Positions 5,629 through 61,396 of a stretch of 64,000 nucleotides of DNA are shown in pieces; positions within the stretch are counted from its first letter, which is position 1; each line of letters opens with the position of its first letter. This DNA comes from Acaryochloridaceae cyanobacterium VAR_48_metabat_390. GTDB lineage: Bacteria > Cyanobacteriota > Cyanobacteriia > Thermosynechococcales > Thermosynechococcaceae. The notes below the pieces were generated by a model. That model was given only the letters and a program-made list of their open reading frames with translations. It was not told where the DNA came from and did not search any database. Where the stretch lies: the NCBI GenBank assembly GCA_031422435.1, contig JANPLU010000107.1:50622-114621 (forward strand), in the 5' to 3' direction. The position numbers were made by a program, and so were the translations under genes.

Positions 5629-6996
5629 ATGACGCAGCGACCCAAAATTATTGTGCTTGACGACGATCCCACCGGATCCCAGACGGTTCATAGCTGTTTG
5701 CTGCTGACGCGCTGGGATGTGGAAACCCTGCGAATTGGGCTAGCCAACACCGCACCGATTTTTTTTATTCTGACCAACACCCGTGCCCTCGCGCCAGAGG
5801 CAGCCGCGCAGGTGACGCGGGAAGTTTGTGAGAACTTAAAAGTGGCGATCGCTGCGCACCAAGAATCCGCTAACGCATCTACTCCAGATTTTCTGGTGGT
5901 TAGCCGCTCTGACTCAACATTGCGTGGTCACTACCCCCTCGAAACAGACGTCATTGCCGAAGCGCTAGGGCCGTTTGATGGTCACTTTTTGGTTCCTGCC
6001 TTCTTTGAAGGGGGACGCATTACCCGCGACAGCATTCACTATTTGATAGTGGACGGTGTGCCCACACCAGTCCATAAAACCGAGTTTGCCAAAGACTCTG
6101 TGTTTGGATACAGCCATAGCTACTTACCCGACTATGTGGCAGAAAAAACAGCCGGTAAAATTGCCGCTGAGAATGTAGAGCGCTTTGTGCTGGCAGATCT
6201 GCGTGCGGGGAGTTTAGAGCGGCTGCTCAAGCTCTCTCATAATCAGTGCGTTGTCGTGGATGCAGAGCAGCAAAGTGATTTAGACCAATTTGCCCAAGAT
6301 GTTTTAGCGGCGACAGTAAAAGGAAAACGCTTCTTATTTCGCAGTGCGGCTAGCCTTTTGACCGCCCTGGCTCAACTGCCCCCTCAACCCGTTGCTGCCG
6401 CCCAAATGGCTCGGTACGTAAAAGGTCAGCAGCCTGGCGCTTTTATCGTTGGCTCTCACGTCAAAAAAACCACTGAGCAGCTCTCTCACTTGCTGAAGGC
6501 AAACGGCATTACTGGGATTGAAATCCCAGTCAGTCCCCTACGAGATACTGCAGATGCTTATGCGACGCTGCTTCAGGAAACCTTAGTAAGGGTGCGAACT
6601 ATTCATAGACAAGGGCAAACACCCGTCGTGTACACCAGTCGGACAGAACTTCAGTTTGACGACCCTGAAACGCGGCTTCAGTTTGGCGAACGGGTCTCGG
6701 CACTGCTGATGGACGTTGTGAAAGGTTTACCCCCTACCCTCGGCTATTTGGTCAGCAAAGGCGGCATTACGTCTAACGATGTGTTGAGTACCGGACTTAA
6801 CCTCAGAACAGCTTGGCTGCTGGGTCAAGTGATTCCAGGCTGTTCAGTAGTTCAAACCACTTCAGAACATGCGCTATTTCCGAATCTCCCTGTGGTGCTG
6901 TTTCCAGGAAATGTGGGTGATGAAGAGGGTTTGACGACCGTTTATCAGCGCTTTAATGTAGCTCAGCAATTTCCCATGACCACAACGCCTCCCTAA
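5629..6996 (+). CDS. Four-carbon acid sugar kinase family (DUF1537) protein
   Basis: IIVLDDDPTGSQT, SRSDSTLRGH, SKGGITS, FPGNVG. Confidence 0.9.
   Translation: MTQRPKIIVLDDDPTGSQTVHSCLLLTRWDVETLRIGLANTAPIFFILTNTRALAPEAAAQVTREVCENLKVAIAAHQESANASTPDFLVVSRSDSTLRGHYPLETDVIAEALGPFDGHFLVPAFFEGGRITRDSIHYLIVDGVPTPVHKTEFAKDSVFGYSHSYLPDYVAEKTAGKIAAENVERFVLADLRAGSLERLLKLSHNQCVVVDAEQQSDLDQFAQDVLAATVKGKRFLFRSAASLLTALAQLPPQPVAAAQMARYVKGQQPGAFIVGSHVKKTTEQLSHLLKANGITGIEIPVSPLRDTADAYATLLQETLVRVRTIHRQGQTPVVYTSRTELQFDDPETRLQFGERVSALLMDVVKGLPPTLGYLVSKGGITSNDVLSTGLNLRTAWLLGQVIPGCSVVQTTSEHALFPNLPVVLFPGNVGDEEGLTTVYQRFNVAQQFPMTTTPP
5844..5870 (+). repeat. HIP1-inserted 18-nt element, copy 1 (in-frame, AIAAHQESA)
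   Basis: GGCGAT[CGCTGCGCACCAAGAATC]CGC. Confidence 0.8.
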
Positions 6997-7029
6997 TAGA
7001 CGTGGCATAATGAGGCGTCACCTCTCAAA

Positions 7030-8118
7030 ATGCTGCTGTTGGCTATGGCTCCTGTTTCAGACCCACCGTCCATTCTCATTCAGCCCCTTGCGGCAAATCC
7101 CGAAAATTTGGAGCTTCAGCTTCCCGATCCTGAGAATGAAGACTTAACGGATTTTGACTTCTTAGAGCAGGTGGAAACGGTCTGGCAAGTCTGCGATCGC
7201 TTTGACCTACAAACCGAAATCTGGCGCGGGCGAATTTTGAAGGCGGTGCGCGATCGCGAAAAACGCGGCGGGGAAGGCCGAGGGATTGGGTTTCTTAACT
7301 GGCTGCAAAATCATGAGATTAGCAAAACTCAGGCTTATCGCCTGATGGAGCTAGCCAACAGTGCCGATAGCCTTTTGGCGGATGGCAAACTAGAGCCAGA
7401 GTCGATGAACCTTTTTAGCAAATCGGCCTTTTTAGAAACGGCTCAAGCCGAACCAGAAGTGCAGCAGATGATCACCGAAGCCGCCCGAGACGGCAAGCGA
7501 ATTACGCGCCGTGAAGTACGTCAGCTCTCTGACGACTGGACGGCAATGTCTTCTGAATTAATCCCCGCCGAAATCAAAACGAAGGCGGCAAACAATACCA
7601 TCCCTAGTCGCTATCTTGCTCCCCTGGCCCATGAGCTAGAAAAGCTTCCGCCCGAACACCAAACGATACTGCAAGCAGAACTGACAGAAAGTCCTGATAT
7701 AGAGACGCTCAAACAGGTCACGGCTGAAGCTAAATATTTAGCCAAATATCTAGACTCTTCTGCTCATGTTCAGGCACTAGAAGACAGCGGGATTGACCTA
7801 GAACAGGCACTAGAAGAAGCCCTGCGGATCGGCTGTCTCAACACCGCAGCAGATTTAGTGCATCAGGCTGCCCAGCTAGAGCAGTGCATGGCAAAACTTC
7901 ATATGACCTGGAAGCGCCTAGGCAAACTTTCAGAGCGTCTTTATGTTGATAGTGGCACGAGTACGCCTCAACTGCGGCAGCTTTTGCAATCTCTCGAAAA
8001 ACTCACCACCGACACGCTAGAACTAGACTGGGGATCTGGAGAGAATAACCTACATCCTGTTCTGATTCGTTTTAAGGTTTTGACAGAAGACCATGAGCCA
8101 GACGCCGCTACACCCTAA
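7030..8118 (+). CDS. Conserved cyanobacterial hypothetical protein
   Basis: 362-aa ORF with CDRFDLQTEIWRGRIL..VRDREKRGGEGRG motif. Confidence 0.75.
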   Translation: MLLLAMAPVSDPPSILIQPLAANPENLELQLPDPENEDLTDFDFLEQVETVWQVCDRFDLQTEIWRGRILKAVRDREKRGGEGRGIGFLNWLQNHEISKTQAYRLMELANSADSLLADGKLEPESMNLFSKSAFLETAQAEPEVQQMITEAARDGKRITRREVRQLSDDWTAMSSELIPAEIKTKAANNTIPSRYLAPLAHELEKLPPEHQTILQAELTESPDIETLKQVTAEAKYLAKYLDSSAHVQALEDSGIDLEQALEEALRIGCLNTAADLVHQAAQLEQCMAKLHMTWKRLGKLSERLYVDSGTSTPQLRQLLQSLEKLTTDTLELDWGSGENNLHPVLIRFKVLTEDHEPDAATP

Positions 8119-9265
8119 GAACAGCAGACAGTGGAATGTATCTGATCCAGGACTATATCTCCTGCGCTGGGGTACCCTGGATTTCTATCTTCTGAAGGCA
8201 TTGTGTCTGCCGTTTTTGTTTGGTGTCAGTACGTTTTTAGGGATTAGTCTCACCCTAGGTTCCCTGTTTGATTTGCTGCGGCAGGTGAGTGAAAAAGGGT
8301 TGCCTCTCAGTATTGCCCTTCAGGTTTTAGGCTTACAAATCCCGAGCTTTTTGGTTTTGGCGTTGCCGATGGCAATGCTGTTGGCGTGCTTGGTAGTGTA
8401 TAACCGCTTGGCGCGAACCAATGAGATTACGGCATTTCGGAGCTTAGGGATTAGTTCTATTCGGCTTGCAGTCCCTGGCTTACTCTTGGGTTTATGGGTC
8501 ACGGGCTTGACCTTTATGCTGAGTGAGTTTGTGGTGCCTACTGCCAATTTACAGGCGGCGCAATTAATGAGTCAGGCGACTAATGCGCCTAAACCTGCGT
8601 TTAGAGATAAAAATATTTTTTATCGAGAATTTGAGAAAGACTCACTTTCCCGCGTGTTTTATGCCCGTCACTTTGATGGTGATCGGATGCAGGATCTCAC
8701 CATCCTAAGCTTTACCCAAGGAATGCTTGCGCAAATTTTGGTCATAGATACAGCGCGCTGGAACCCCATAACCCAGGTTTGGGATTTAGTAAATGGTACC
8801 GCCTATGCGCTAAGTGCCGATGCTCAAACCTATCAGGCCATTAATACGTTTGCAAAAACAGCCTTCCATTTGTCTCGTGGCCCCTTAGATTTAGCCACCG
8901 AAACGCGCACTGCGGATCAAATGGGTATTACTGATACCTATCAGTACTGGCGTTTAATCAAAGGCACAGGAGAGGTTAAGTATACGCGTCAGCTTGCGGT
9001 GCGGCTTCAGACAAAAGTGGCCTTTCCATTCATTTGTGTGGTGTTTGCATTGATAGGAGCGGCAATAGGGATACAGCAGCGACAACGCTCTAGCTCAAAA
9101 GGTTTTGGTCTCAGCCTAGTCATTATTTTTGGGTACTACACCGTTTCGTTTACCACGCGCTCCCTTGGAGAAGCGGGAGTTGTTTCGATTTTTGTGGCAG
9201 CTTGGGTTCCCCTCATTTCGGGACTATTAATTGGGGGTAAGCTGCTCTATGATGCTAATCGTTAA
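8093..9265 (+). CDS. LptF/LptG family LPS export permease
   Basis: LDFYLLK...PFLFG, LPMAMLLA..EITAFRSLGIS, 3+3 TM layout, AAWVP. Confidence 0.88.
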   Translation: MSQTPLHPKNSRQWNVSDPGLYLLRWGTLDFYLLKALCLPFLFGVSTFLGISLTLGSLFDLLRQVSEKGLPLSIALQVLGLQIPSFLVLALPMAMLLACLVVYNRLARTNEITAFRSLGISSIRLAVPGLLLGLWVTGLTFMLSEFVVPTANLQAAQLMSQATNAPKPAFRDKNIFYREFEKDSLSRVFYARHFDGDRMQDLTILSFTQGMLAQILVIDTARWNPITQVWDLVNGTAYALSADAQTYQAINTFAKTAFHLSRGPLDLATETRTADQMGITDTYQYWRLIKGTGEVKYTRQLAVRLQTKVAFPFICVVFALIGAAIGIQQRQRSSSKGFGLSLVIIFGYYTVSFTTRSLGEAGVVSIFVAAWVPLISGLLIGGKLLYDANR

Positions 9266-9274
9266 AGTTCATTA

Positions 9275-10006
9275 TTACGGTGCGTCGATGGCGGTACTGC
9301 CAAAGCGGTAACCTTTGCCGTAGATAGTGTGGATGAGCGGTGCATCTTGAGGTGCCTCAATTTTGCGGCGCAAGAGGCGAATATGAGCTGCTAATACATT
9401 GCTGGCTGGCTTTTCTTCTGTGGGCCATACCTGCTGATAAATTTCTTCGTGGGTTAAAAGCTGCGGGTGCTGCATTAAAACGGCTAGCAGCCGACATTCT
9501 TTTTCAGAAAGGGCAATCATACGCCCATTGCGGTAGGCCATCTGATCTTCTATATCTAGCTCTAGCCCTTCAGCGCTGATGCGGAGGCTAAGGGTCGCGT
9601 CTTCTTCTGGGGGTTTGGCCCTTAATAGATCGCTCCGACGCAGTAGCGCTCGCACCCGTGCCAACAGTTCGCGTAACTCAAAGGGTTTTACTAAGTAATC
9701 GTCCGCGCCAGCATCTAACCCCTGAATACGGGCATCTAGAGTATCTTTTGCTGTCAAAAATAAAACAGGGGTCGTATCTCCCTGCGATCGCAGCTTTTGA
9801 CATAGCTCAATCCCAGATTGCTTGGGTAACATCCAGTCTAAAATCAGCAGTTCATAGGGTACCCCTACGTTACCCTGGTGGGTCTGGATCATTTGCAGCG
9901 CTGTTTCACCGTCGTAGGCCACCTCTACGGTATAGCCCTCCCGCTTGAGCGCACGGCACAGCGGCGCTGTTAGTTCAACCTCATCATCTACTAAAAGAAT
10001 CGACAT
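9275..10006 (-). CDS. OmpR-family DNA-binding response regulator (RppA-like)
   Basis: ILLVDDE, LDWMLP, LTAKD, GADDYLVKPF, IHTIYGKGYRF. Confidence 0.9.
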   Translation of the reverse strand: MSILLVDDEVELTAPLCRALKREGYTVEVAYDGETALQMIQTHQGNVGVPYELLILDWMLPKQSGIELCQKLRSQGDTTPVLFLTAKDTLDARIQGLDAGADDYLVKPFELRELLARVRALLRRSDLLRAKPPEEDATLSLRISAEGLELDIEDQMAYRNGRMIALSEKECRLLAVLMQHPQLLTHEEIYQQVWPTEEKPASNVLAAHIRLLRRKIEAPQDAPLIHTIYGKGYRFGSTAIDAP

Positions 10007-10137
10007 ACGCTCTTGGCGATCGCCCTCCATCGGTCTAAAGTCTGTCTGAGGTCAGAACGCCTAAATCATAGGATAATTGTACGACAGGCACTTAGAATGG
10101 CTTGTCCTAGGCACAATAGACTTTTCTGAAATCACCC

Positions 10138-35380: not shown

Positions 35381-36853
35381 ATGCTGAGTGCAGAACCGAG
35401 CGAGGAACCACAGGTCGAGACTTCCCTTGAGCTAAAAGAGATTCAGGGCATTATTGTGAGCGGCTATGGTCACTTGTCTCATTCCAAGTATCTGTTTGTA
35501 CAGATTGAGAATGCAGAGAAGGCCAAAGACTGGCTGCGATCGCTCCTTAAAAACCACCGCATCACCAGCGCTCAGCGGGATGCAAAGCCTCTTGTTGCCG
35601 TGAATTTAGCGCTAACCTATGCAGGGCTGCAAAAGCTGAACGCCTCAGACGATTTACTGCAAAGTTTCCCGAAAGAATTTGTCGAAGGCATGACCACACC
35701 CAAGAAGTCAGAGCAGCTTGGCGATCTGGGTATTAACGCCCCCCAATATTGGGGAAAACCCTATCATCCCAACTCAGAAGCGGTTGATCTTCTGCTCATT
35801 TTGCAGGCAGGTGCAGAAGCCCTAGATGCACTTTACACCGAATATGAGAGGCAGCTAGAACCCAATGGCCTAAAGCTTCTCACGGTTGAGACAGGGTATA
35901 TCCCAGCAGACAGCAAAGAGCATTTTGGCTTCTATGACAGTATTTCTCAGCCAATTATTGAGGGTAGCCCCCAAGAGAGTAAGGCGAAAAACAGTAGCGC
36001 CCAAGACCTCACCAAAGCCGGAGAATTTATCTTGGGCTATCTCAATGAGGATGGCAACTATCCTTCTACCCCAACCGTTCCCACCTCTCAAGATCATACC
36101 CACGTCCTACCGCTGCTGCCCGAAACGGCGCTTAAAGACTTTGGACGCAACGGCAGCTACTTTGTCTTTCGCAAAATCGCCCAAGATGTGGCAGGCTTCC
36201 GGCGATATTTTCAGGAATCATTCAGCACTCCTGAAGAACGCACCCTTATGATGTCTAAGGTGGTGGGGCGGTGGCCTTCCGGTGCCCCGTTGGTGCAGGC
36301 ACCAGAGGCAGATCCTTTGGGCGATCGCCTCCCCAATAACGACTTCTTAGCAAACCATAACGACTTCACTTACCGCACCGAAGACCCCCAAGGCTTCCGC
36401 TGCCCGTTTAGTAGCCACATTCGCCGCACCAATCCACGAGATTCTTTAGGGCAAGATGCCGACGAATCAATCAAAAGTTCACGGCGGCGACGGCTATTGC
36501 GCCGAGGCGCTGTCTATGGCGACCCGCTCCCCCAAGGCATTACAGAAGATGATGGACAGGCTAGAGGACTGCTGTTTTTTTGCATCAATGCCAATATCCG
36601 GCGACAGTTTGAGTTTGTGCAGCAAAGCTGGGTGAACGCCCCCACCTTTAATGGCCTGTACGATGAGCGTGACCCGCTAGTAGGCTATAACCCTGACAAC
36701 TTACCGCGCACAATGGTGATTCCTCAAGTGCCCCTCAGCCGAAGCCTTAGCCTGCCTAACTTTGTCACCCTCAAAGGCGGAGCCTATTTTTTCTTGCCTA
36801 GCCTTTCAGCACTAAACTTTCTGGCGGCAGTATCGGTTCCGGCTCAGCGCTGA
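35381..36853 (+). CDS. Long DyP-type heme peroxidase
   Basis: EIQGII, EHFGFYDSISQP, GEFILGY, NGSYFVFRKIAQDV, SHIRRTNPRD, LLRRG, QFEFVQ, GGAYFFLPS. Confidence 0.9.
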   Translation: MLSAEPSEEPQVETSLELKEIQGIIVSGYGHLSHSKYLFVQIENAEKAKDWLRSLLKNHRITSAQRDAKPLVAVNLALTYAGLQKLNASDDLLQSFPKEFVEGMTTPKKSEQLGDLGINAPQYWGKPYHPNSEAVDLLLILQAGAEALDALYTEYERQLEPNGLKLLTVETGYIPADSKEHFGFYDSISQPIIEGSPQESKAKNSSAQDLTKAGEFILGYLNEDGNYPSTPTVPTSQDHTHVLPLLPETALKDFGRNGSYFVFRKIAQDVAGFRRYFQESFSTPEERTLMMSKVVGRWPSGAPLVQAPEADPLGDRLPNNDFLANHNDFTYRTEDPQGFRCPFSSHIRRTNPRDSLGQDADESIKSSRRRRLLRRGAVYGDPLPQGITEDDGQARGLLFFCINANIRRQFEFVQQSWVNAPTFNGLYDERDPLVGYNPDNLPRTMVIPQVPLSRSLSLPNFVTLKGGAYFFLPSLSALNFLAAVSVPAQR

Positions 36854-39800
36854 AGCCATCCCAGGCGGACTCTTGGTGCGCAGCTATCGCCCCTAACGTC
36901 ACCAAAGAAGACTTTTGCGCGTCTGTCAGCCCCGTTACGCCCTCAATATTCATTTGGTCGTAGGGTCTGTCTTCTTGAAAAGTTTGAACACATTGCCCAG
37001 TGGCAACATTCCAACGCTTAATGGTTCCTTCTTGGGCGGCACTAAACAGTTCTAGCGTCTGCGGATGAAACGCTACCGACCAAACCTCTCGCTCATGACC
37101 TGTAAGGGTTTGGGTGCAGTTGCCATCTGGGATAGACCAAAGCCTAACGATTGCGTCATTACTACCGCTGGCGATCGCATCTCCCTTGGGGCTAAACACC
37201 ACAGACCACACCGAACCCGAATGCCCTTCTAGGGTTTTCAGACAGTCACCAGACGCAACATCCCAAAGCCGAATTGTTTTATCATCGCTGCCGCTCACCA
37301 ATAGGGTTCCGTCTGGGCTAAAGCTGGCGCTAAAAATTAGGCTGGTGTGCCCTGTCAACACACGCAGACAGGTGCTAGAGGCGACATCCCATAGGCTGAC
37401 GAGGCGTTCTCCATGTCCACAGGCGAGGGTTTTGCCATCGGGGCTAAAGGTGACAGTCCACACCCGTCCACCCTGGGGCAAAATGCCGAGGCATTCCCCT
37501 GATTGGACATCCCATAGCCGCACGGTGGTATCGTCGCTGGCACTGGCAAGGGTGCGTCCATCGGGGCTAAAGTCTACTGCAAACACAAGACTGAGGTGGC
37601 CTTGAAGGGTTTTAATCGGTTTCCAGGTAGAGGTTTGCCAAAGTTTAATGGTGTTGTCGTTGCTGCTGCTGGCTAAAAGCTGCTGATTGGGGCTAAACAC
37701 AACGCTCCAAATCCAGCTCGAATGGGCTTCTACCGATCGCAGACATTCGCCAGAGCTTAAAGACCACTGGTTGATTTTTTTGTTATCGCCACTGCTGATG
37801 AGACATTGCCCATCGGGGCTAAAGGCGAGAGATTTAATGCCTGTGCTGTAGCCCTTTAAGGTTCGCAGAGACTGTCCGGTTTGAGGGTTCCAGAGCTTCA
37901 CGGTGCTGTCGTTGCTACCGCTCACCAATAGAGTTCCGCTGGGGTGAAAGGCCACAGACCACACCCCATTGGGGTGGCCTTTGAGGGTTTTGACACATTG
38001 ACCAGAGGTAATATTCCACAGGCGAATGGTGCAGTCTTGGCTCCCTGTTGCTAAAAGGGGTAAAGCCGCTTCGCTAGCGTCTTCATTCGCAAGAGCAGGG
38101 GCAAACGCAACGCAGACGACGGGCTGAAGGTGGCCTTTGAGCGATCGCAGACATTCCCCTGTCTCTACCTGCCAAATATCTACGGTGCAGTCAATGCCAC
38201 CCGTTGCTAAAAATGCGCCGTCAGGGCTAAAGGCAAGGGAACGCACGCGATTAATGCGCCCTTGCAGCAGTTCTATGGCGGTGCCTGTCGCAAGGCTCCA
38301 CAGCCGAATGGTTTTATCGGCGGAGCTGCTGGCAATGGTTTTGCCATCGGGGCTGTAGGCCAAAGACCACACCGTACTTTCGTGGCCTTTGAGGGTAGTG
38401 AGACACTGGCTGCTGGCAATATCCCACACCTTTACCCTATGGTCATCGGCACCGCTCACAAGGGTTGCCCCGTCAGGGCTAAAGGCGATCGCCCACACCC
38501 ACCCCTCATGACCAGAAAGGGTTTTGAGGCACTGCCCTGTTGCCAAATTCCAGAGCTTCACAGTTTTATCAAAACTGCCGCTGGCAAGGGTTTGACCGTC
38601 GGGGCTAAAGGCTACGGCGCAAACCCAGTTGCTGTGCCCTTCACAGGTCAACACCTCTTTATAGCCCTCTACCTGCCAAACGCGCACCTTATCGTCCGCG
38701 CTGCCCATGGCAAAGCGCTTTCCGTCGGGGCTAAAGGCCACAGAAAGCGTCGCGCTTAAGACCGCTGTAAACGAAGACCGAGACAAATCGGCATGGGCAA
38801 AGTTGACGTGGGAGAGATTGGCATCCACCAGGTATGCCTGCCAAATTGCCAGATAAGAGCAGTCTAGACCGCTAAAGTTCGCTCCCAGCTCCCGCAGCAG
38901 ATTAAGGAGATTGCCCCCCACATAGCCCGCTTGCAGCGGCGCATCTGCTCTGGTTTTTGCCAAAAGGTCTTTTAGACACTGCTCAATACGAGGTTTGCTC
39001 TCTAAAACATCTTGCAGCCGCGCCAGCACAGGCCGCAGCACAAACTGAATTTGCGCCTGTCTCACATAGTCTTTGGCCTGTGCCTTAATGAGCGCATAGG
39101 TTTTGAGCAGCGCCTGCTGCTGGCTCAAGATTTCGTCACTCACGCCCATCACTAAGCGATTTGTGACGTACTCCATCACCACTGGCTCTAGAGAAAACAG
39201 CCGACCGTGCTGCACAATTAAGCTGCGATGCCGCAAAGAACGAATCACTTCAGGCATGAGCAGGCTGTCCTGCACAATATCTAACTCTAAATCAGCGATC
39301 AAGACAGGCTCACGACTGACCGCTAACCAATAAATTACCTGCCGCTCTGCTGCCGAAAGTCGATTAAAGTGCCGCGCCAGTAGGTCATTGATATCGTCAA
39401 ACTGAAGCACGCCCCGCCGCATGTATGGAATAGCGTTGGCGACATTGCCATCCAACAGGTCATGCACCGCAGACGCAATAATCTTAAGCGCCAAGGGGTT
39501 GCCTGCATAGTGCTGCAAGATTTCGGTTAAGGCTTCTGGGGCAATATCCACTAAGCCTTTATCGGCAAATAGCGCCTGTGCTTCGATATGGTCAAGACCT
39601 TCAAGGGAGAGCGATCGCACGGGTAATGTCCTACCTTCGCGTTGGGCAAGTCCCTTCGGCTTCTCTCGACTGGTGATGAGGACGCAGCTTTGGTGCTGGC
39701 TTTCGGCAATGCAGCGCAAAAGCTGACCATAGCCTTCGTAGCCCGCACTGTAGGCTCCCGAAGTACCGCTCATTAAAACAGATTCCCAGTTGTCTAGTAC

Positions 39801-40523
39801 CACTAAACACCGATGCTGTCGCAGATAGTGCAGCAGACGCGCCAACTGAGCATCGGGGCTATCGGGCAGCGCAGATTCTTGCTGTAGCGACAAAAAATGA
39901 ATCAGAGAAGCCAGCAGATCTTCAAAGGCTGGCACATTCCGTAGCGATCGCCAAAAGACAAATTCAAACTGCTCCTGAAGCTGTGCCGAGAGCTTCACCG
40001 AGAGCGTCGTTTTACCAATGCCGCCCATGCCTAACAGCGAGACTAGACGACAGCGATCGCCCACAACCCACTGCTCTAGGGTTTGAAGTTCTTCAGTGCG
40101 CCCATAAAACACAGAGCTATCAATGACATCTCCCCAATCAGCTTGGGTGGTAGACGCAGCTTTGCCTAAACCTGAATTCTCAAGCTGTTTTGCGACAGGA
40201 TCGGGTTCTGACTCAGCCCAAAACGTTTTTTCTTTGGTTAAGGTTTTTGGCTCTAAATGTTTTCGACCATAGCGTTCTAGCGCCGCCCTAAAACTGGTTT
40301 TGCTGACCTTTTCCCCCATCACTTGAGACAGCAATTTCCATAGCTTAGGCCCTACGTCTTGACGTAGATACTGAGCCGTATAGTGATGTGCTTCTGCAAT
40401 TTCTTCATAGCCCTGACCCTGCCAGGAACCCCGAAACACCAGAACTTCTGTGTCTCTCAGATGCCTTTGCATACTTTCGTAAACAGCAGCATCAATCAAG
40501 AAAATTAGCTCATCAAAATCCAC
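36798..40523 (-). CDS. STAND NTPase: N-terminal HTH-like, NB-ARC, pentapeptide, about 14 WD40 repeats
   Basis: FYGRTEEL, GMGGIGKTTL, LVVLDNWE, ITSREKP, AGNPLAL; GH..W..AFSPDG repeats. Confidence 0.92.
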   Translation of the reverse strand: MDFDELIFLIDAAVYESMQRHLRDTEVLVFRGSWQGQGYEEIAEAHHYTAQYLRQDVGPKLWKLLSQVMGEKVSKTSFRAALERYGRKHLEPKTLTKEKTFWAESEPDPVAKQLENSGLGKAASTTQADWGDVIDSSVFYGRTEELQTLEQWVVGDRCRLVSLLGMGGIGKTTLSVKLSAQLQEQFEFVFWRSLRNVPAFEDLLASLIHFLSLQQESALPDSPDAQLARLLHYLRQHRCLVVLDNWESVLMSGTSGAYSAGYEGYGQLLRCIAESQHQSCVLITSREKPKGLAQREGRTLPVRSLSLEGLDHIEAQALFADKGLVDIAPEALTEILQHYAGNPLALKIIASAVHDLLDGNVANAIPYMRRGVLQFDDINDLLARHFNRLSAAERQVIYWLAVSREPVLIADLELDIVQDSLLMPEVIRSLRHRSLIVQHGRLFSLEPVVMEYVTNRLVMGVSDEILSQQQALLKTYALIKAQAKDYVRQAQIQFVLRPVLARLQDVLESKPRIEQCLKDLLAKTRADAPLQAGYVGGNLLNLLRELGANFSGLDCSYLAIWQAYLVDANLSHVNFAHADLSRSSFTAVLSATLSVAFSPDGKRFAMGSADDKVRVWQVEGYKEVLTCEGHSNWVCAVAFSPDGQTLASGSFDKTVKLWNLATGQCLKTLSGHEGWVWAIAFSPDGATLVSGADDHRVKVWDIASSQCLTTLKGHESTVWSLAYSPDGKTIASSSADKTIRLWSLATGTAIELLQGRINRVRSLAFSPDGAFLATGGIDCTVDIWQVETGECLRSLKGHLQPVVCVAFAPALANEDASEAALPLLATGSQDCTIRLWNITSGQCVKTLKGHPNGVWSVAFHPSGTLLVSGSNDSTVKLWNPQTGQSLRTLKGYSTGIKSLAFSPDGQCLISSGDNKKINQWSLSSGECLRSVEAHSSWIWSVVFSPNQQLLASSSNDNTIKLWQTSTWKPIKTLQGHLSLVFAVDFSPDGRTLASASDDTTVRLWDVQSGECLGILPQGGRVWTVTFSPDGKTLACGHGERLVSLWDVASSTCLRVLTGHTSLIFSASFSPDGTLLVSGSDDKTIRLWDVASGDCLKTLEGHSGSVWSVVFSPKGDAIASGSNDAIVRLWSIPDGNCTQTLTGHEREVWSVAFHPQTLELFSAAQEGTIKRWNVATGQCVQTFQEDRPYDQMNIEGVTGLTDAQKSSLVTLGAIAAHQESAWDGFSAEPEPILPPESLVLKG
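36865..36891 (-). repeat. HIP1-inserted 18-nt element, copy 2 (in-frame, AIAAHQESA)
   Basis: minus strand GGCGAT[AGCTGCGCACCAAGAGTC]CGC. Confidence 0.85.
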
Positions 40524-40606: not shown

Positions 40607-41275
40607 CTATGTTTTTCGTTCAAACACGACAGAAAGGTTATTTGAAGGCATTTCAATAATGTTACTTAAGTGAAGGTTATGCTGTGCCGCAACCGCTACA
40701 ACATCTTCTAAGTGGCGAAGCCCCCAGGCTGGATTGCGCGATCGCAGGCTTGCGTCAAACGCTTCGTTACTAAGCGCGGTCGGCACATCCTTTTGTCTGT
40801 ACGGCCCATACAGATACAGAATCCCCCCAATGGGCAACAGTGCTTCAGCGCCTTGCATTAAGCCCAAAGTGGCAGACCAAGGCGAAATGTGAATCATATT
40901 GATATTGGCGATCGCGGTGATAGATACGTCTTCTAGAGTGTGTGTGGCGGACTCTGGGTGCGCAGCGATCGCCGTCTTTGCCACACCGAGCCAATTGGGT
41001 TGGCTCATATCCAATCTGACGGGAGGTAGCAGCCGCTCGGCGGGGACATACTGTTGCCAAGCCGAAATACTTGCCAAAGCTGCGGTATCAGCATCACTGG
41101 GGAGCCAGTAACGGGGGAAAAGCTGCGGCGCAAGAAATACGGCATGTTCTCCGGTGCCGCTGGCAATTTCTAACACAAGCCCTTCTGGAGGTAGCACCTG
41201 TTGCAGCACCCGAAGAATCGGTTCACGGTTGCGCTGAGTGGCAGGAGCGAACTGTCTGGCATCAACTTGAGGCAT
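40607..41275 (-). CDS. DUF938 SAM-dependent methyltransferase
   Basis: APATQRNREPI, LEIASGTGEH, NINMIHISPW, YGPY, SNEAFDASL, MPSNNL. Confidence 0.92.
   Translation of the reverse strand: MPQVDARQFAPATQRNREPILRVLQQVLPPEGLVLEIASGTGEHAVFLAPQLFPRYWLPSDADTAALASISAWQQYVPAERLLPPVRLDMSQPNWLGVAKTAIAAHPESATHTLEDVSITAIANINMIHISPWSATLGLMQGAEALLPIGGILYLYGPYRQKDVPTALSNEAFDASLRSRNPAWGLRHLEDVVAVAAQHNLHLSNIIEMPSNNLSVVFERKT
40947..40973 (-). repeat. HIP1-inserted 18-nt element, copy 3 (in-frame, AIAAHPESA)
   Basis: minus strand GGCGAT[CGCTGCGCACCCAGAGTC]CGC. Confidence 0.85.
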
Positions 41276-51216: not shown

Positions 51217-51232
51217 GTTAAGAAGCATCGTT

Positions 51233-53187: not shown

Positions 53188-53229
53188 GCGATCGCCATTG
53201 GGTTACATCACGGCTGATGCTGCGATCGC
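53188..53229 (+). repeat. HIP1-bounded direct repeat, copy A
   Basis: gcgatcgc-cattgggttacatcacggctgatgct-gcgatcgc; 53193-53229 identical to 53980-54016. Confidence 0.9.
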
Positions 53230-53273: not shown

Positions 53274-53588
53274 CTAAGCGCGCATTGGCTGAGGCTCTTG
53301 CGGCAACAAACGACATTTGATTGTTTTTTGAATTTCTGCTCCAGCCTGCTGCTCAGCCAAACGCAGCTCATAAGCTTTTTGCAAATTCAGCCATAGCTCA
53401 GGGCCAGTACCAAACCACTGCCCCAGCCGTAGAGCAGTATCCGCCGTGATGCCGCGTTGCCCCTTCAGAATCTGGGTAACGCGATTGGTAGGCACATGAA
53501 GCGTCCGAGCCAGCGCCGCCGCACTCATATCGAGTTCATCAAGCTCATCCGCTAAAATTTCGCCAGGGTGAATTGCTGGACGTGTCAT
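53274..53588 (-). CDS. higA: HigA (VapI-type) antitoxin
   Basis: IHPGEIL, VPTNRVTQI..GQRGITADTALRL..FGT.PELWLNLQ. Confidence 0.93.
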   Translation of the reverse strand: MTRPAIHPGEILADELDELDMSAAALARTLHVPTNRVTQILKGQRGITADTALRLGQWFGTGPELWLNLQKAYELRLAEQQAGAEIQKTIKCRLLPQEPQPMRA

Positions 53589-53602
53589 AAAACATTCCTC
53601 CT

Positions 53603-53893
53603 TCAGTGATAATCCACAATCTCAATATTGAACAGGGACTCCTCTTCCTCAGGCCATTCAAAACAAATACGCCATTGGTTATTGATGCGGATGCTGAACT
53701 GACCGTTACGGTCGCCGCCCAATGCTTCAAAGCGATTGCTGGGCAACATCATGAGGGCATCTTTGTTGGGTGCAGCTTCCAAAATCTCTAGACGCTTGTA
53801 TGCTTGCCTTTCAAACGCCTGAAATTCTTTAACTCGCCCTCCCTCCGCAAAGTGCTTTGTCCGCTTGTCTTTGTACTTTTGGCACATGTACAA
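53603..53893 (-). CDS. higB: HigB (RelE/ParE superfamily) toxin
   Basis: LPSNRFEALGGDRNGQFSIRINNQWRICF...EIVDYH; toxin upstream of antitoxin. Confidence 0.92.
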   Translation of the reverse strand: MYMCQKYKDKRTKHFAEGGRVKEFQAFERQAYKRLEILEAAPNKDALMMLPSNRFEALGGDRNGQFSIRINNQWRICFEWPEEEESLFNIEIVDYH

Positions 53894-53956
53894 TTATTCT
53901 AGCCATTATGGGTTACGTCAACCATAACATTTGTCTTCTTATCTCCCCGCGTCTGT

Positions 53957-54016
53957 GCGGACTCTTGGTGCAGAGAGAGCGCCATTGGGTTACATCACGG
54001 CTGATGCTGCGATCGC
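53957..54016 (+). repeat. HIP1-bounded direct repeat, copy B, with the 18-nt element (copy 4) in its left HIP1
   Basis: gcg[gactcttggtgcagagag]agcgc-cattgggttacatcacggctgatgct-gcgatcgc. Confidence 0.85.
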
Positions 54017-54080
54017 CCGTTACAAAAAGCAGCCTCTAATCCTCCAGCACTGCCGAAGCTAGCTTGAGTAGAGAGATCGC

Positions 54081-54374
54081 CTAAGAAAACAAAAAGCCTT
54101 CAATATCCCTTGCACCTTGCAAAACTCGAACAATATCAATGCCGTCCTCAATCGGAAAATAGAAAATCAGGTAGTTCCCCACTGAAAAACTACGCAGATT
54201 GGGCTTCAGTTCATCTTGGGATACTCCCATCTGTGGAAACTCAGCCAGTACCAAGCATTTATCATGGATGCGATCTAAAAATTGATCGGCATTTTGGGGG
54301 CTGTCCTGGGCGATGTACCACCAGATATCGTCAAGGTCAGCTTCAGCTTGTGGACGTTTTAATAAACGCGGCAT
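54081..54374 (-). CDS. parE: ParE-family toxin
   Basis: PQAEADLDDIWWYIAQDSP, LAEFPQMG, YLIFY, IVRVLQGARDI. Confidence 0.9.
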   Translation of the reverse strand: MPRLLKRPQAEADLDDIWWYIAQDSPQNADQFLDRIHDKCLVLAEFPQMGVSQDELKPNLRSFSVGNYLIFYFPIEDGIDIVRVLQGARDIEGFLFS

Positions 54375-54380
54375 CTTAAC

Positions 54381-54638
54381 TTATGCCTCTTGCTGGGCTA
54401 CCAAACGCTTACGACCGCGCGCCTTTATGCCTTCAATGTCTAGTGGTGTTGCACAACCGCTATCAATCCCTTTCTGGATCTCGCTTCGTAATGCTTTAAG
54501 CCGCATTTCACGCAGTTGGTCGCGCTCTTGCAACAGACGCAATGCCTCACGCATCACCTCACTTGCTGAATTGTAGAGACCACTCTCAACCTTTGCCCTT
54601 ACAAGGTCTTCTAAATGAGAGGTAAGCGAAATATTCAT
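54381..54638 (-). CDS. parD: ParD (CC2985-type RHH) antitoxin
   Basis: MNISLT..LE..V..KVESGLYNSASEVMREALRLL. Confidence 0.92.
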   Translation of the reverse strand: MNISLTSHLEDLVRAKVESGLYNSASEVMREALRLLQERDQLREMRLKALRSEIQKGIDSGCATPLDIEGIKARGRKRLVAQQEA

Positions 54639-54824
54639 AGGTTTTATGTTGCCACTTCAGTTAATAACAAAGAATAGCAAGCATTGCTATTCATAGCCTA
54701 ACCCACTTTTTAACGCATTAGAAAAGGCAGTCCCTGACAATGGCAGTCAAGACACCTCGGTCTCAACCTTGAAAAAAATCGGCAAATGGTAGAATAAAAC
54801 CTAAGTTCTATCAAGGTATCATTC

Positions 54825-55088
54825 ATGGGAATGAATATTAAAAACGCTGAAGTTCACGCGATGGCTCAAGAACTTGCGCAATTGACGGGGCAGAATTTAA
54901 CCAATGCCGTCAAGATGGCCGTTGAGCAGGCATTAGCGCAGGTCAAATCCAGTCGCGCTCTACCCAGGTCTAGACCCCTGGGACAGCGGTTAAATGAAAT
55001 TGCACTGCGTTGCGCAAGCTTGCCCGACAACGATCTCCGCAGTCCAGACGAGATCCTGAGATACGATGAGTCTGGTTTACCCGCCTAA
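54825..55088 (+). CDS. vapB: VapB antitoxin (Rv0623-like)
   Basis: MNIKNAEVH..AQELA..TG..LT.AV, DEIL.YDESGLP; TAATG overlap with vapC. Confidence 0.88.
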   Translation: MGMNIKNAEVHAMAQELAQLTGQNLTNAVKMAVEQALAQVKSSRALPRSRPLGQRLNEIALRCASLPDNDLRSPDEILRYDESGLPA

Positions 55089-55473
55089 TGGTTATTGATA
55101 CATCGGCGATCGCCGCAATTCTATTTGATGAGCCGGAGCGAGCGGCTTTATTGAAAAAATTGAGGCTGCTCAAACTCGACTCATTAGCGCTTCTACATTA
55201 CTGGAATGTATGCTGGTGGTAGAGTCTCGCAAGGGGACACTGGGACGCGCTGAACTAGAGCTTTTTGTTTATGAAGCCGACCTAAACATCGTTGCCTTTG
55301 ATCAGGCGCAGATGGATCTTGCTGCACAAGCATGGCGGCATTATGGCAAGGGGCGACATGCTGCTGGGCTAAATTATGGCGATTGCTTTGCCTATGCGCT
55401 GGCAAAGTTCAGCGGCGAGCCACTGCTGTTCAAGGGAATGGATTTCCCTCAAACAGATATTGAGCAATGCTGA
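55088..55473 (+). pseudogene. vapC: VapC PIN toxin with a -1 frameshift
   Basis: MVIDTSAIAAIL..EPE, frameshift at the T-run 55147-55149, then ...GKGRHAAGLNYGDCFAYALA...LLFKG.DF.QTD; one added T gives 128 aa. Confidence 0.85.
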
Positions 55474-57456: not shown

Positions 57457-57536
57457 AACTTCTCTCTACGTCAATCCGTACCGCTGGAACCTCAAACACT
57501 TCATCATACCGAAGGACTGCTGCAATGGCAATGAGT

Positions 57537-57995
57537 TCAACATTCCTCATCTAAAGTCTGCTCGATGGTGAAAGGGCAGCGTTCAGGAAAAGTGCTGAGC
57601 GGCAAACCGGTTTCTTTAACTGCACCCCGTCGAGCAGCTGTATAGGCTTTGTCCAAAACCGCTGCCGGATAAGACCTGAGGCTGGGGCTATCTTCTACAA
57701 TCTGCTCAATTTCTTGGCGGTTATTCCAAATCGTGATGTCCCAAGAGCGGGTTTGTCTATCGGGTTGGTATTTCCGCTTCAGTCTGTGTATTAGAAGAAC
57801 CGTGAGCCGACTTAAGATTTCACGCTGATCCCGTTTGCTCATGCTCTCCAGTTCATCAATCAGATTCTCGATGTCCAGCTCATCAAAGCGCTGAGATTTG
57901 AGCAGATCAACAGTCTGCTTAATCCAAAGATTGAAGTCTTGATCATATTGAACAGAAGCGTGTGCCAGGGTCATATCAAAAGTGGGGTCGCTCAT
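57537..57995 (-). CDS. DUF29 family protein
   Basis: YDQDFNLW, LDIENLIDELESM, DSPSL, ETGL...FP..CPF. Confidence 0.9.
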   Translation of the reverse strand: MSDPTFDMTLAHASVQYDQDFNLWIKQTVDLLKSQRFDELDIENLIDELESMSKRDQREILSRLTVLLIHRLKRKYQPDRQTRSWDITIWNNRQEIEQIVEDSPSLRSYPAAVLDKAYTAARRGAVKETGLPLSTFPERCPFTIEQTLDEEC

Positions 57996-58073
57996 AGTCC
58001 CCACAAAACGTTCAATATTCCTTTTGTATTATAAACGGGCTTCACTACCCCCTCAGTCATGTATTAAGCACAC

Positions 58074-58967
58074 TTAGATTAAAACCGTGCCGTGGTCAAA
58101 CGCTTGCCCGTCGGTTCCAATTCCCTGAATTTCAATGCGGTCCGTATAAACCTCTAGCGCAGAGAATCCATAGCGAGATTCCGCATAAGCTGTCCAGTCA
58201 GACTTGCCGACAGGACGTAAGCTAGCCCCACCAATTCCGGTAATAAGGTAGGTCGTGCCGTTAATTGCAGTGGTGCGCTCATAGTGATGTTCGTGCCCAT
58301 TGATGTAGATCTGCACGCGATATCGCTTAAATAAAGGTGTTAATCGCGCCACCATATCTTTATCGGTGCCATATATCCCAGATGCATAGATAGGATGGTG
58401 CCCGTAGACAATCTTCCAGGGTGCATTACTTTGGCGTAAGGTTTTCTCTAGCCATGCTAACTGAGCATTCCAATCCGCATTAACATTAGTATCCAGCACA
58501 AAAAACTGCACGGATTCTTTGCGATAGGTGTAGTATCGCCCCGTCATATTGAAAAGCGGATATTTGACCTGAAGGTCGCCATTTTGAGTGCGAATGTCGT
58601 GGTTGCCGAGACAGGCGCGAAACTCAACGCCCTGCTTGAGCAGATCGGCATAGGGATGCTCAAAGACAGAGGTGATTTTTTCAAATTCACCGTTGGTATA
58701 AATATTGTCTCCCCCTAAGACTGCTAGTTGATAGGGGTGATTGCGGTAATAGCCTTTCATCGCCTGCACAACGTCATACTGGTTCTGGTCGCCTGAACCA
58801 GTATCTGCGATCGCGACAAACCGTAAAGTTGAGCTTGATTTAGCAGTGGAAGGGACTTTTGTCGCTCCCGTCACAGACTTACTCAAAACTGCAAGTCCAA
58901 GTCCACTCAGTCCTCCTAGGGCCAGGCAGTGCCGACGATTCATTCGCATAAACCTGTTTAACCCCAA
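58074..58967 (-). CDS. Metallophosphoesterase (purple acid phosphatase-like), probable Tat signal
   Basis: MNRR N-terminus; ADTG, GDNIY, LGNHD, GHHP, NGHEHHYER. Confidence 0.9.
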   Translation of the reverse strand: MGLNRFMRMNRRHCLALGGLSGLGLAVLSKSVTGATKVPSTAKSSSTLRFVAIADTGSGDQNQYDVVQAMKGYYRNHPYQLAVLGGDNIYTNGEFEKITSVFEHPYADLLKQGVEFRACLGNHDIRTQNGDLQVKYPLFNMTGRYYTYRKESVQFFVLDTNVNADWNAQLAWLEKTLRQSNAPWKIVYGHHPIYASGIYGTDKDMVARLTPLFKRYRVQIYINGHEHHYERTTAINGTTYLITGIGGASLRPVGKSDWTAYAESRYGFSALEVYTDRIEIQGIGTDGQAFDHGTVLI

Positions 58968-59298
58968 CCTAAGATTTTGTCAGTATACCCTGGGCCACTG
59001 TTTGAGACATCAGCTTAGACCATAAAGAAGGATTGAATGACAGGAGCGGATCAGCTAGACCAGTCGTTTCAAAAAATTTAGCGACGACAAATATTTTGTC
59101 ACCAGAGTAATATCGGTCATTGACCTGGGGCATCTTAAAAACACAGCAAAAATTACGCTGCGGGTCATCAATCTGCCCTTCGCTATGTCTCTTAGGGCAA
59201 ATCCGTCTCCGTAGTCCTACACAGAACGCTTTTCAGCATTTTAGCCTCTTATTGATCCTCACTCCATCCATCCTCAGCATCCTGAATCGAGAGAAATT

Positions 59299-60603
59299 AT
59301 GCACCCTCAGCTTTGGCATCACTGGTTAAATTTTGTTGTCCCTCAATCCTTCATTTCTCTCGGCACGATTGCAGCACTCTGCACGGGCACTGGCCTCATA
59401 CCCGTTTATGCCCAGTCTTTGAGCAGCACTAGCGGCGTGAATGCCACTGCTGCAAATCTTCCTGCTGCAAAAGCTCAGCTATTCGTTAACCCCAACTTGG
59501 GCAAAGACGATGTGAGTGCTGGACGAGATGCGTCCACGCCCTTTAAAACCATCTCTTTTGCGTTTGGGCAAGCACAGTCTGGAATGGTTATTCAGCTTGC
59601 ACCTGGAAACTACACCCCAGAGTCCGGAGAGGTTTTCCCGCTGACTGTACCCCAGGGCGTTACCCTTCAGGGAAACGAATTTAATCAGGGTGGCAACACC
59701 ACCATTACGGGCGGCGGGTTTTCCTCTAGCTCTTGGTGGGGTTCTCAAAATGCAGCCCTTTGGGCAAAGGCTAACAGCCAAATTATCGGCGTTTCTGTCA
59801 CCAACCCTAACTCTCGCGGTACGGGCATTTGGATTGAGTCTGCCAATGTCGCAGTTCGGGGCTGCACGTTCAGTAAAAGTGCAAGAGAAGGCGTTTTTGT
59901 TGCGGGGAAGGCCAGCGCCACCGTTGAAAACAATCTGTTTTTTGAAAATAGCGCTAATGGCATTGCCCTGACAGGGATGTCTACAGGCATGGTGCGGAAT
60001 AACACGTTTCAAAGAACGGGATTTGGCATTGCGGTGAGCGAAAAAGCCTCACCGCAACTGGTCAATAATCGCGTACAGGACAATGTAGATGGTATTGTAG
60101 TGAGCCACTCAGCAACACCCCAACTGCGCGGCAACGTGGTAGAAGGCAGTAAGAGAGACGGCTTGGTCGCTATTTCTGAGGCAAAGCCCGATTTGGGTAG
60201 TGCCGCTACACCAGGTCGTAATATCTTCCGTAATAATGGTCGGTTTGCAATTTACAATGCCACGCTCAAAAATGCCCTTATGGCTGAGGGTAATGATGTA
60301 GCAGGCACCATGCAGCTAGCAGCTAATGGCCCGACGGGCGTAGATCAAAATACGCCTCCATCATTAGAGTTAGAGGCTTATAAAGCAAAACTTCCAGTCA
60401 TTGCACCTAATGCAGTGGCAATCCCTGGATCCATGGCGGCAAACCAAGAGTCCACGCCCATGAAGGCCGTTCCTGTGGCAAAGGTCGCCCCTGCTAGCAA
60501 AACGGTTGCAAGCACCATTAAACCTAAGCAGAGTTTGAGTAAAGCTCCAACCGTGAAATATAAGGGGAAAACCTACGTTTTGCTTGAAAGTGTCACTCGT
60601 TAG
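59299..60603 (+). CDS. DUF1565 parallel beta-helix exported protein
   Basis: LFVNP..G.D...PFKTI..A, IQLAPG.Y....GE.FPL, PDLG....PGRNIFRNN. Confidence 0.85.
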   Translation: MHPQLWHHWLNFVVPQSFISLGTIAALCTGTGLIPVYAQSLSSTSGVNATAANLPAAKAQLFVNPNLGKDDVSAGRDASTPFKTISFAFGQAQSGMVIQLAPGNYTPESGEVFPLTVPQGVTLQGNEFNQGGNTTITGGGFSSSSWWGSQNAALWAKANSQIIGVSVTNPNSRGTGIWIESANVAVRGCTFSKSAREGVFVAGKASATVENNLFFENSANGIALTGMSTGMVRNNTFQRTGFGIAVSEKASPQLVNNRVQDNVDGIVVSHSATPQLRGNVVEGSKRDGLVAISEAKPDLGSAATPGRNIFRNNGRFAIYNATLKNALMAEGNDVAGTMQLAANGPTGVDQNTPPSLELEAYKAKLPVIAPNAVAIPGSMAANQESTPMKAVPVAKVAPASKTVASTIKPKQSLSKAPTVKYKGKTYVLLESVTR

Positions 60604-60679
60604 CGCAATAAGCGACCTTAAGCATTGCAGCCTCGCGACCGATACAGTAAATTTCTGCAATGTGGATGCTTGGAGCCTA

Positions 60680-60713
60680 GCGATCGCCTCTCCATAAACG
60701 GAAAGGCGATCGC
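60680..60713. terminator. Hairpin built from two HIP1 sites between convergent genes
   Basis: gcgatcgcctctcc-ataaac-ggaaaggcgatcgc. Confidence 0.45.
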
Positions 60714-60736
60714 CGTTGAATTGCGCTAACCCACCG

Positions 60737-61396
60737 CTAGGTACCCTGCATGGCAATACTTCTCGCCATAATCATGTACTGAAAAATAAATTCCATTACC
60801 TCAACTCGATTTCTGGCTTCCTCCGGAGAGAGACCCCAGACCGTCACGCCGTGGTCACGAATCAAACACGCCGAAACTTGCGGTGGCTTCTGCCCAAATC
60901 GCTCCAGTATCTCTGCACCAATGTGAGGTACTTTGAAATGATTCTCAAGCAGCGACAGATAAACCGTAGGGTTTTCCTGCCAAATACCCAGTCCCTTGAT
61001 CATTTCAATAGCAGGAAGCTGAATATGATTAAGGGTAGTGAGGCGAGAGACTAGGTTAGCAGACACTGAATGAACGTGGTAGCAGGCCATTGCATCAGGA
61101 AAAAGCCGATAAACGGCCTGGTGAATGCTGGTTTCAGCAGAAGGTTTTGCAGTGGGGATAGGCTGGGTCAGCAGTTGACCATCTAAAGACATTTGCACAA
61201 ACTGGTCTAAGGTCAGTTCCCCCTTGGAGCCGCCGCTGGCGGTAATCCAAAAGCTGCCGTCTGGACCTCGCGTAGATAAATTGCCAGCAGTGCCCCACAT
61301 CCAGCCGCGCTCATAAAAGGAGCGGGCGTGGGCTATGAGTGTAGATCTAGGATCGTGCGGGGTGGACTCTTGGTGCGCAGCTATCGCCTCTGCCAT
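60737..61396 (-). CDS. mtnB: Methylthioribulose-1-phosphate dehydratase
   Basis: FYERGWM.GTAGNLS, FWITASG..KG.L, KPSAETSIH, HVHS, EMIKGLG, DHGVTVWG. Confidence 0.92.
   Translation of the reverse strand: MAEAIAAHQESTPHDPRSTLIAHARSFYERGWMWGTAGNLSTRGPDGSFWITASGGSKGELTLDQFVQMSLDGQLLTQPIPTAKPSAETSIHQAVYRLFPDAMACYHVHSVSANLVSRLTTLNHIQLPAIEMIKGLGIWQENPTVYLSLLENHFKVPHIGAEILERFGQKPPQVSACLIRDHGVTVWGLSPEEARNRVEVMEFIFQYMIMARSIAMQGT
61362..61388 (-). repeat. HIP1-inserted 18-nt element, copy 5 (in-frame, AIAAHQEST)
   Basis: 61364-61388 identical over 25 nt to 36867-36891. Confidence 0.85.

Follow-up and report, generated by a model that had tools for sequence, protein, structure and literature searches.

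Scattered over a 64,000-nucleotide stretch of contig JANPLU010000107.1 from Acaryochloridaceae cyanobacterium VAR_48_metabat_390 (hereafter the window, i.e. this stretch at its full length) are copies of an 18-nt element lodged in sites of HIP1 (highly iterated palindrome 1), a palindrome of 8 bases common in cyanobacteria, which occurs 68 times in the window against an expected 1.04. Four of the filled sites lie in-frame in genes for unrelated proteins: 5844–5870(+) (insert 5850–5867) in an SBD_N/NBD_C (DUF1537-type) kinase gene at 5581–6996(+); 36865–36891(−) (insert 36868–36885), a perfect match to the consensus, near the C-terminus of a WD40 protein gene at 36798–40523(−); 40947–40973(−) (insert 40950–40967) in a DUF938 gene at 40607–41275(−); and 61362–61388(−) (insert 61365–61382) at the N-terminus of an Aldolase_II (mtnB-like) gene at 60737–61396(−). 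A fifth copy, decayed and intergenic, is found at 53957–53983(−) (insert 53960–53977), adjoining the right-hand one of two 37-bp direct repeats that flank a higBA-like gene pair. To these five, listed in an earlier note on the window, we add a sixth, decayed and intergenic copy at 60662–60688(−), which scores 27.9 bits and for which no alignable empty orthologue was found.

The places and flanks of the five listed copies, including CAC in place of the final CGC at 61362, were borne out, as were the 25-nt identity between the copies at 36865 and 61362 and the shared reading AIAAH[Q/P]ES of the four genic copies. A search for GCACCMAGARTC with up to one mismatch returns exactly five matches in the window, each with 0 mismatches (5856–5867(+), 36868–36879(−), 40950–40961(−), 53960–53971(−) and 61365–61376(−)); shuffled versions gave a mean of 1.06, and five or more matches in 0 of 100 shuffles. 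The Pfam assignments of the host genes are SBD_N+NBD_C, WD40 repeats, DUF938 and Aldolase_II; the STAND domain once proposed is not among the 25 families listed of 60, and ‘mtnB’ is the earlier note’s own label. The statement that removal of the 18 nt regenerates HIP1 agrees with the exact gaps in orthologues described below; at 53957 it yields a one-mismatch HIP1, because the GCGAT half of that copy is degenerate.

Genome-wide copies and the reading-frame filter

We counted copies in the source genome (G000; 3.70 Mb, with 3,855 HIP1 sites) by iterating a position weight matrix on the genome with a cut-off of at least 20 bits, which converged on the consensus GGCGAT-MGCTNCGCACCMAGAGTC-CGC. This genome scan found 77 copies, compared to 0 and 4 in two block-shuffled controls. 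The five copies behind the previously proposed density of five per 64 kb are real, but the genome-wide figure is about 1.3 per 64 kb, and the window is therefore richer than average. Above the element in the list of the most frequent k-mers of G000 stand other abundant short repeats, viz., those of the TCTCCCTAGGGAG and CCCCTAACCCC types and one 13-mer series with 14 copies.

With up to two mismatches allowed, the element is present in eight of nine congeners at 4–60 copies each (4 in G004), with 0 matches in the remaining one, G006; in two of 15 same-family genomes of other genera, with one or two copies; and, outside the family, in 0 of 16 genomes from other families. Exact-consensus copies number 22–27 in G001 and G003, at unrelated loci. 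A survey of exact matches in named records (at least 114 stretches, of which 80 of 114 were listed) names as carriers Altericista sp. and metagenome-assembled genomes (MAGs) labelled Acaryochloridaceae, Thermosynechococcaceae or Thermosynechococcus; MAGs of Kovacikia, Aphanocapsa and Microcoleus have one exact-match stretch each, at 1–4 copies per MAG. Eight stretches in metagenome contigs match the element, cyanobacterial plasmids have no match to the 18-nt form, and viral contigs have none either; a looser viral scan gave 120 stretches, mostly chance, just one of them with at least two HIP1 sites nearby. A literature search found no description of the 18-nt sequence in the available listings and passages; the supplements of Elhai et al. 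2008 (Genome Res 18:1484) may list related sequences.

Copies outside called genes make up 29 of the 77 in G000, against 309 of the 3,855 HIP1 sites, as judged by a simple gene caller made for this analysis, which missed the mtnB start. Across 180 site clusters, 87 are intergenic, while the rest read AIAAHQES (42), ADSWCAAIA (22), DSCAPRVR (18) or RTLGAQLS (11), with none in the GLLVRSYR frame or in the stop-containing frame; HIP1 frames in G000 stand at 1802:1128:616. Hence, the proposal that the insertion adds the same six codons to unrelated proteins is true of one frame (AIAAHQES), while the other frames give DSCAPRVR, RTLGAQLS and ADSWCAAIA. Sense copies outnumber antisense ones (60 vs 33). 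The common orientation of the four genic copies had been taken as a weak sign of strand bias or selection. Counted per HIP1 site, however, the antisense RTLGAQLS occurs about as often as the sense frames do, and the open antisense GLLVRSYR frame is empty, which argues for selection on the peptide and not for a strand-biased mechanism. A bias by replication strand was also rejected: the pattern seen in the complete genome G009 vanished with halves set by dnaA (position 461), the copies then being 11+/14− vs 9+/9−. The element is thus a steady supply of six-residue protein insertions, with the reading frame acting as a filter.

Empty sites, mini-hairpins and nested copies

The congeners provide the direct evidence for mobility. 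At 36865, G007, G003, G009 and G002 have an exact 18-nt gap (G006 is too diverged there); at 40947, the 18-nt gap recurs in six congeners, with a nested 36-nt form in G003; the 5844 site is empty in eight of nine congeners and filled in G002; and the 61362 site, filled in the close congeners G007, G003 and G001 (in the last together with a nested 18-mer, the type B introduced below), is plain GCGATCGC with no insert in G009 and G008. With three of the coding sites showing exact 18-nt gaps in orthologues and the fourth an empty site, the mobile HIP1 insert envisaged in the earlier note is confirmed, and the expected six-residue gaps appear in the protein alignments, where the aligner places them a few residues apart. 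A comparison with metagenomes, covering four of 16 listed runs, adds contigs about 93–94% identical to the source in runs X3 and X4 that are without the 18 nt at 36865, and an additional 18-gap record across 40947 in X4; contigs of run X2, 99% identical, show no gaps and have both inserts.

Pooling 245 distinct filled copies gave 213 site clusters (187 under another rule), a clustering that is imperfect and in which most clusters are without an available orthologue. An exact −18 partner was found for 34 of the 213, the best empty site being a perfect HIP1 in 21 and differing from it at one position in 8 and at two or more positions in 5; other gap sizes occurred in 16 partner contexts, five of these a further +18. 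Between these genomes, 29/47 to 55/68 of ordinary HIP1 sites are conserved, and the empties therefore resemble ordinary HIP1 sites. More than one genome shares 26 of the site clusters. The DUF1537-kinase site is filled only in G000 and the distant G002. In all 200 bootstrap trees, the gene phylogeny needs two changes to account for this, and hence repeated gain, precise loss or allele exchange. The 18-nt element is real and recently mobile: a non-coding sequence copied dozens of times into one exact position of HIP1.

Its conserved end is built around one free base. Among the 245 copies, position 11 varies without restraint (A69/C39/G83/T54), and the adjacent positions are 95–99% fixed; the opposite strand here reads GCGNAGC, with N free, e.g., at 36878–36884(+) in the 36865 copy, on the strand opposite the gene, where a GC stem encloses a GNA loop. 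Such DNA mini-hairpins have been reviewed: in the available text, GNA is the only triloop of 64 to form the GC mini-hairpin, with all four N (melting temperature 70–76 °C), and it resists 3′ exonuclease, while for the related GAAA hairpin the RNA version has a melting temperature of 39 °C (PMC13037366). The same source describes GCGNAGC/GCGNNAGC in the G4 phage origin and the N4 promoter, and the conserved end of the element is exactly GCGNAGC; that available text contains neither ‘cyanobacter’ nor ‘transpos’, and the role in a mobile element is our own proposal. The left junction of filled sites reads GCGATAGC or, in a subtype, GCGAAAGC, both listed there as mini-hairpins (71 and 76.5 °C). 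The loop base is identical in 32 of 38 orthologous filled pairs; being free overall yet stable between orthologues, it must vary within the population of copies that moves, in which many copies donate. A second arm, ACT-CTT-GGT at 36869–36877(+) in the same copy, is predicted to form a 3-bp stem with a T.G wobble and a 3-nt loop, and its alignment suggests positional homology to the 3-bp stem-loop of 21-nt relatives.

Copies also bear marks of age. Those with C for A at position 7, the change that restores HIP1, show more decay in their right part (2.58 vs 1.28 mismatches; n=31 and 29; p=0.0013), and A is therefore the fresh state. A G precedes GCGAT in 32 of 37 copies, compared to 57% of all HIP1 sites. 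The left AGC is unlike the right CGC in 173 of the 245 copies, and a 3-nt target duplication was rejected since the freshest copies have AGC on the left and CGC on the right. At the left junction, five of the 34 paired sites have A for T, every matching empty having T, and three further such sites with an empty T were read by eye; the same HIP1 base changes from T to A in 1 of 232 ordinary comparisons. The left-junction A is linked to a right-junction purine (6/20 vs 4/151, p=2e-4, or 1e-3 minus one duplicated locus), in counts that include related and duplicated loci and thus kin that are not independent. The simplest reading of these junctions would be that 19 donor bases replace one target base and that the junction bases travel with the element.

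HIP1 is the main target. At least four copies of the element (type A) are nested inside its own hairpin, and a second 18-mer, type B, with a GCTCT-GAA-AGAGC hairpin on the same strand, has 64 matches in five congeners; outside the genus its exact 16-mer occurs in two of 296 genomes, once each. In the 34 type-B contexts read in all (the best 30 of the 64 matches were fetched), 27 lie in the hairpin loop of type A and seven in a CCCCCT..AAGGGGG palindrome family. At three of the four type-B-in-type-A sites with an un-nested orthologue, the host loop base is kept on neither side. At L361, L364, L365, L368 and L371 (G002, G009), a longer type B, combining the GCTCT-GAA-AGAGC hairpin with a GCGTAGC mini-hairpin, occupies the centre of CCCCCT..AAGGGGG palindromes, and the central T of the paralogous empty palindrome is missing from the filled copies, the comparison being paralogous and not orthologous. 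Close to the hairpin loop of one GCGAAAGC-type copy sits a third nested guest of 18 nt (C27 of G000 vs L402).

Candidate routes of spread between HIP1 sites

We tentatively favor, at somewhat less than even confidence, the reading that the element is an SDR5 (small dispersed repeat 5)-type micro-element spreading between HIP1 sites by copying via folded single-stranded DNA (ssDNA), with host enzymes and no transposase of its own. We infer an ssDNA intermediate that folds in vivo and pairs by its arms. The strand GCG^...^ATCGC of a filled site would form a pair of very small hairpins, one of them ACT-CTT-GGT and the other GCGNAGC, which resists exonuclease, bringing the HIP1 halves together; the folded strand would then anneal through its arms, GCG and (A)TCGCC, to an empty HIP1 that is open or nicked, and the sequence enclosed by the arms would be copied in, for a net gain of 18 nt without target duplication and with junction bases from the donor. 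Every intact copy could serve as donor. After insertion, copies would decay, with A>C restoring HIP1 at the left junction, and could be hit again, and genic copies would persist only where the six added residues are tolerated. This scheme makes specific testable predictions as to the active strand, seven important bases, a free base and the carry-over of junction bases.

Several points weigh against it. Neither the intermediate nor the enzyme has been observed, and arms of 3 and 5–6 nt are very short for unaided annealing. ViennaRNA predicts a fold other than the three-way one, with the left GCG pairing with the element’s own GCGC, though current folding parameters do not describe mini-hairpins, according to the available text of PMC13037366. 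The second arm is nearly invariant within type A, with almost no compensatory change, and its stem needs the T.G pair. As for the junctions, the left A could be a post-insertion mutation, since A makes the more stable GCGAAAGC hairpin, and the linkage counts contain kin and duplicates. One A-in-A nesting keeps the loop base of its target (C30 of G000 vs L110), the type-B case in mtnB is compatible with loop-base retention, and both the search pattern and orthologous duplicates inflate the 26/28 count obtained for the base to the right of type B. Finally, the spread is patchy (0 copies in G006, 4 in G004, none in 13 of the 15 same-family genomes of other genera), which would fit a dedicated, unevenly distributed enzyme equally well.

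That enzyme might be a trans-acting HUH/Y1-like single-strand transposase of the peel-and-paste kind, which would recognize the mini-hairpin, excise an 18–19-nt ssDNA circle and insert it 3′ of GCG. This would account for the lack of target duplication, for the position of the target GCG, which in HIP1 as well as in self-nesting is 5′ of the cut when the hairpin strand is read, for the patchy distribution and, through precise loss, for the homoplasy of the DUF1537 site. We consider it unlikely: the Y1 transposase family PF01797 gives five matches in the copy-free G006 and none in G000 or G004, the GTAG/CGTC tag is lacking, and no transposase recurs beside copies, the largest of the clusters among 350 neighboring open reading frames (ORFs) covering seven sites with no recurrent mobilizer. 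Known IS200/IS605 ends, moreover, are longer than those of the element. A flanking RAYT (repeat-associated tyrosine transposase)-like enzyme was rejected, as inverted pairs of copies 450–950 bp apart enclose ordinary ORFs (some of which we take to be DUF29-like or thermonuclease-like) and the distribution of Y1 does not track that of the copies. Nor did the search for a longer parent element or RNA suggested earlier find one: in G000, where GCGATAGC occurs at 178 sites, no site leads into repeated long sequence beyond the element and its nested forms. Quite unlikely, in our estimate, is a site-specific recombinase acting on HIP1, of the tyrosine or the IS110/bridge-RNA type, that brings about recombination between the target and a single-strand donor in folded form. 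A connection of HIP1 with site-specific recombination has been made (PMC4390886), the swap of junction bases could result from an exchange about one central base, and IS110-family genes are present in G003 and G009. However, in the five genomes searched, IS110 gave one sub-threshold match in G000, none in G004 and two in G006, and one enzyme would also have to accept GCGNAGC and CCCCCT..AAGGGGG as targets. The IS110-family gene of G009 (L418, 694–2004) is split into two frames and holds a GCGAAAGC-type copy, whereas its intact 433-aa homologue in G003 (L419) has an empty HIP1; the G009 gene is therefore a victim of insertion and not a parent, and no element-like ends were found at the limits of homology of the pair.

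A route through RNA, in which the transcript of a filled site is reverse-transcribed at a nicked HIP1, appears very unlikely. Reverse transcriptase (RT) genes are present in all five genomes searched, G000 having one weak match, and the sense excess would suit such a route; yet the copy-free G006 too has RTs, the conserved fold is the DNA-favored GNA triloop, the sense excess is frame-specific, and four loop variants among fresh copies argue against a single master template. With Y1, RT and IS110 families all present in G006, RT and IS110 were rejected as mobilizers on the basis of the five genomes searched for each; the IS110, RT and higB genes that hold copies are insertion targets. We think it similarly improbable that there are only old insertions, whole alleles of which are redistributed by natural transformation and homologous recombination with no current mobility. 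The 26 shared site clusters, a DUF1537 homoplasy that could be allele exchange, and run X2 with both inserts would accord with this view. On the other side stand the exact-consensus copies that G001 and G003 carry at unrelated loci, the contigs of about 93–94% identity without inserts, and the copies within IS110, RT and toxin-antitoxin genes; moreover, the origin of the copies would be left unexplained.

The folded-strand reading can be widened into a doubtful but consequential form, viz., that class-wide 18–27-nt ‘mini-hairpin’ DNA parasites home into short palindromes without any element-encoded protein, the GCGNAGC-ended folded strand being written in by host enzymes, 19 bases for one, with type B as a hyperparasite in the loop of another element. 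If true, they would rank as the smallest DNAs that propagate themselves by a defined mechanism, and HIP1 would offer a natural route for site-specific oligonucleotide insertion.

The neighborhood and the relation to known systems

The intergenic copy at 53957 lies in a region with repeats of its own. A 37-bp exact direct repeat (53193–53229 and 53980–54016), which has HIP1 at its end and occurs nowhere else in G000, encloses two ORFs (53274–53588 and 53603–53893), presumably higA/higB-like; within 53274–55473 we recognize what we take to be three successive toxin-antitoxin-like pairs, viz., higBA-, parDE- and vapBC-like. In G001, a 97%-identical copy of the higBA-like cassette starts exactly at the HIP1 at 53222, a boundary that suggests HIP1-bounded cassette integration. 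The higB homologue of G002 (L555) has an in-frame type-A insert at a site (window 53670–53690) where neither the window nor G009 has the insert. The segment 52900–53233 matches two places in G009 at 89% and may be a duplicated gene or one end of a mobile element.

Among known classes of short repeats, miniature inverted-repeat transposable elements (MITEs) have terminal inverted repeats, a target duplication and, in the available text, a size of 70–300 bp (PMC3733652), none of which applies to an 18-nt element. Repetitive extragenic palindromes (REPs) are defined there by a GTAG or CGTC tag beside a palindrome (PMC3733652), and no such tag is present in the consensus of the element (from the G000 matrix and the 245-copy alignment). 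REP/REPIN sequences with their RAYTs and IS200/IS605-derived elements are alike in being short hairpin DNA without target duplication and with a probable ssDNA step; the element differs in having no inverted dimers as a rule, 62% of its G000 copies in genes and one fixed target.

The closer relatives are the SDRs. The movement of SDR5-type repeats has been open since 2008, and the role of HIP1 is debated. In the work of Elhai and colleagues from that year, SDR5 was reportedly found only in HIP1, with a secondary structure conserved through compensatory changes, and SDR1 and SDR4 repeats are said to self-nest. The nested arrays of copies inside copies are a likeness to SDR1/SDR4; the element differs in that its main target is HIP1 and that the commonest nested guest is another element, type B. 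SDR5 is described, in the available text, as inserting between nt 3 and 4 of HIP1 (PMC4390886), and GCGAT^CGC of the element is the reverse-strand reading of that same bond, GCG^ATCGC. Both are tiny, dispersed and a multiple of three in length. Of the 34 empties, 29 are within one mismatch of HIP1, and at least four copies are in the element’s own hairpin; self-nesting and the hosting of a second 18-mer are features additional to SDR5.

A looser pattern run over 301 genomes of the class matched 34, mostly with single and probably chance matches. Several genomes of the families f32 and f15 have repeated 21-nt inserts composed of AGCTNCGC, 2 nt, a 3-bp stem with a 3-nt loop and 2 nt; in f32, 19 of 41 genomes match, with inserts of 21–27 nt and second stems GCC/GGC, CAC/GTG, AAC/GTT, TAC/GTA, GCT/AGC and ACC-AAG-GGT. 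From one family to another the 3-bp stems differ in a compensatory way, and seven of ten 13-nt arms from loci of these 21–27-nt relatives have a perfect stem. The terminal 8 nt, AGCTNCGC with N free, are common to the 18-nt element and the 21–27-nt HIP1 inserts of other families, and the element, laid out as AGCTNCGC + ACC-AAG-AGT + C, repeats the design of the 21-nt insert with three bases fewer, i.e., without the 2-nt linker and with one base less at the far end. The 21-nt form matches plasmids of Anabaena, Nostoc, Dolichospermum, Sphaerospermopsis and Calothrix, and eight of nine records covering at least 80% of the query are from Nostocales; it therefore fits the published account of SDR5, beside which we set it by description and not by consensus.

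The earlier note was right in naming SDR5 as the nearest known system, given the same HIP1 bond and the 8-nt end shared with the Nostocales insert, whereas its ‘distinct 18-nt family’ has to be given up, with bond, AGCTNCGC end and a recognizable second arm (ACC-AAG-AGT vs ACC-AAG-GGT) all shared with the 21-nt inserts. SDR5 is 21 nt long and hosted by heterocystous cyanobacteria in the available text of PMC13756078, and that of PMC5861425 gives no SDR-like repeat outside Nostocaceae; because the element has a net length of 18 nt and non-heterocystous carriers outside that family, we do not file it as SDR5 itself. Compared in sequence with the 21-nt inserts and likened to SDR5 by description, it is best seen as a shortened SDR5-type variant. 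Micro-insertion targeted to HIP1 has already been published, and the element does not represent a new kind of system; it is the shortest member seen here and takes the SDR5 type beyond Nostocaceae.

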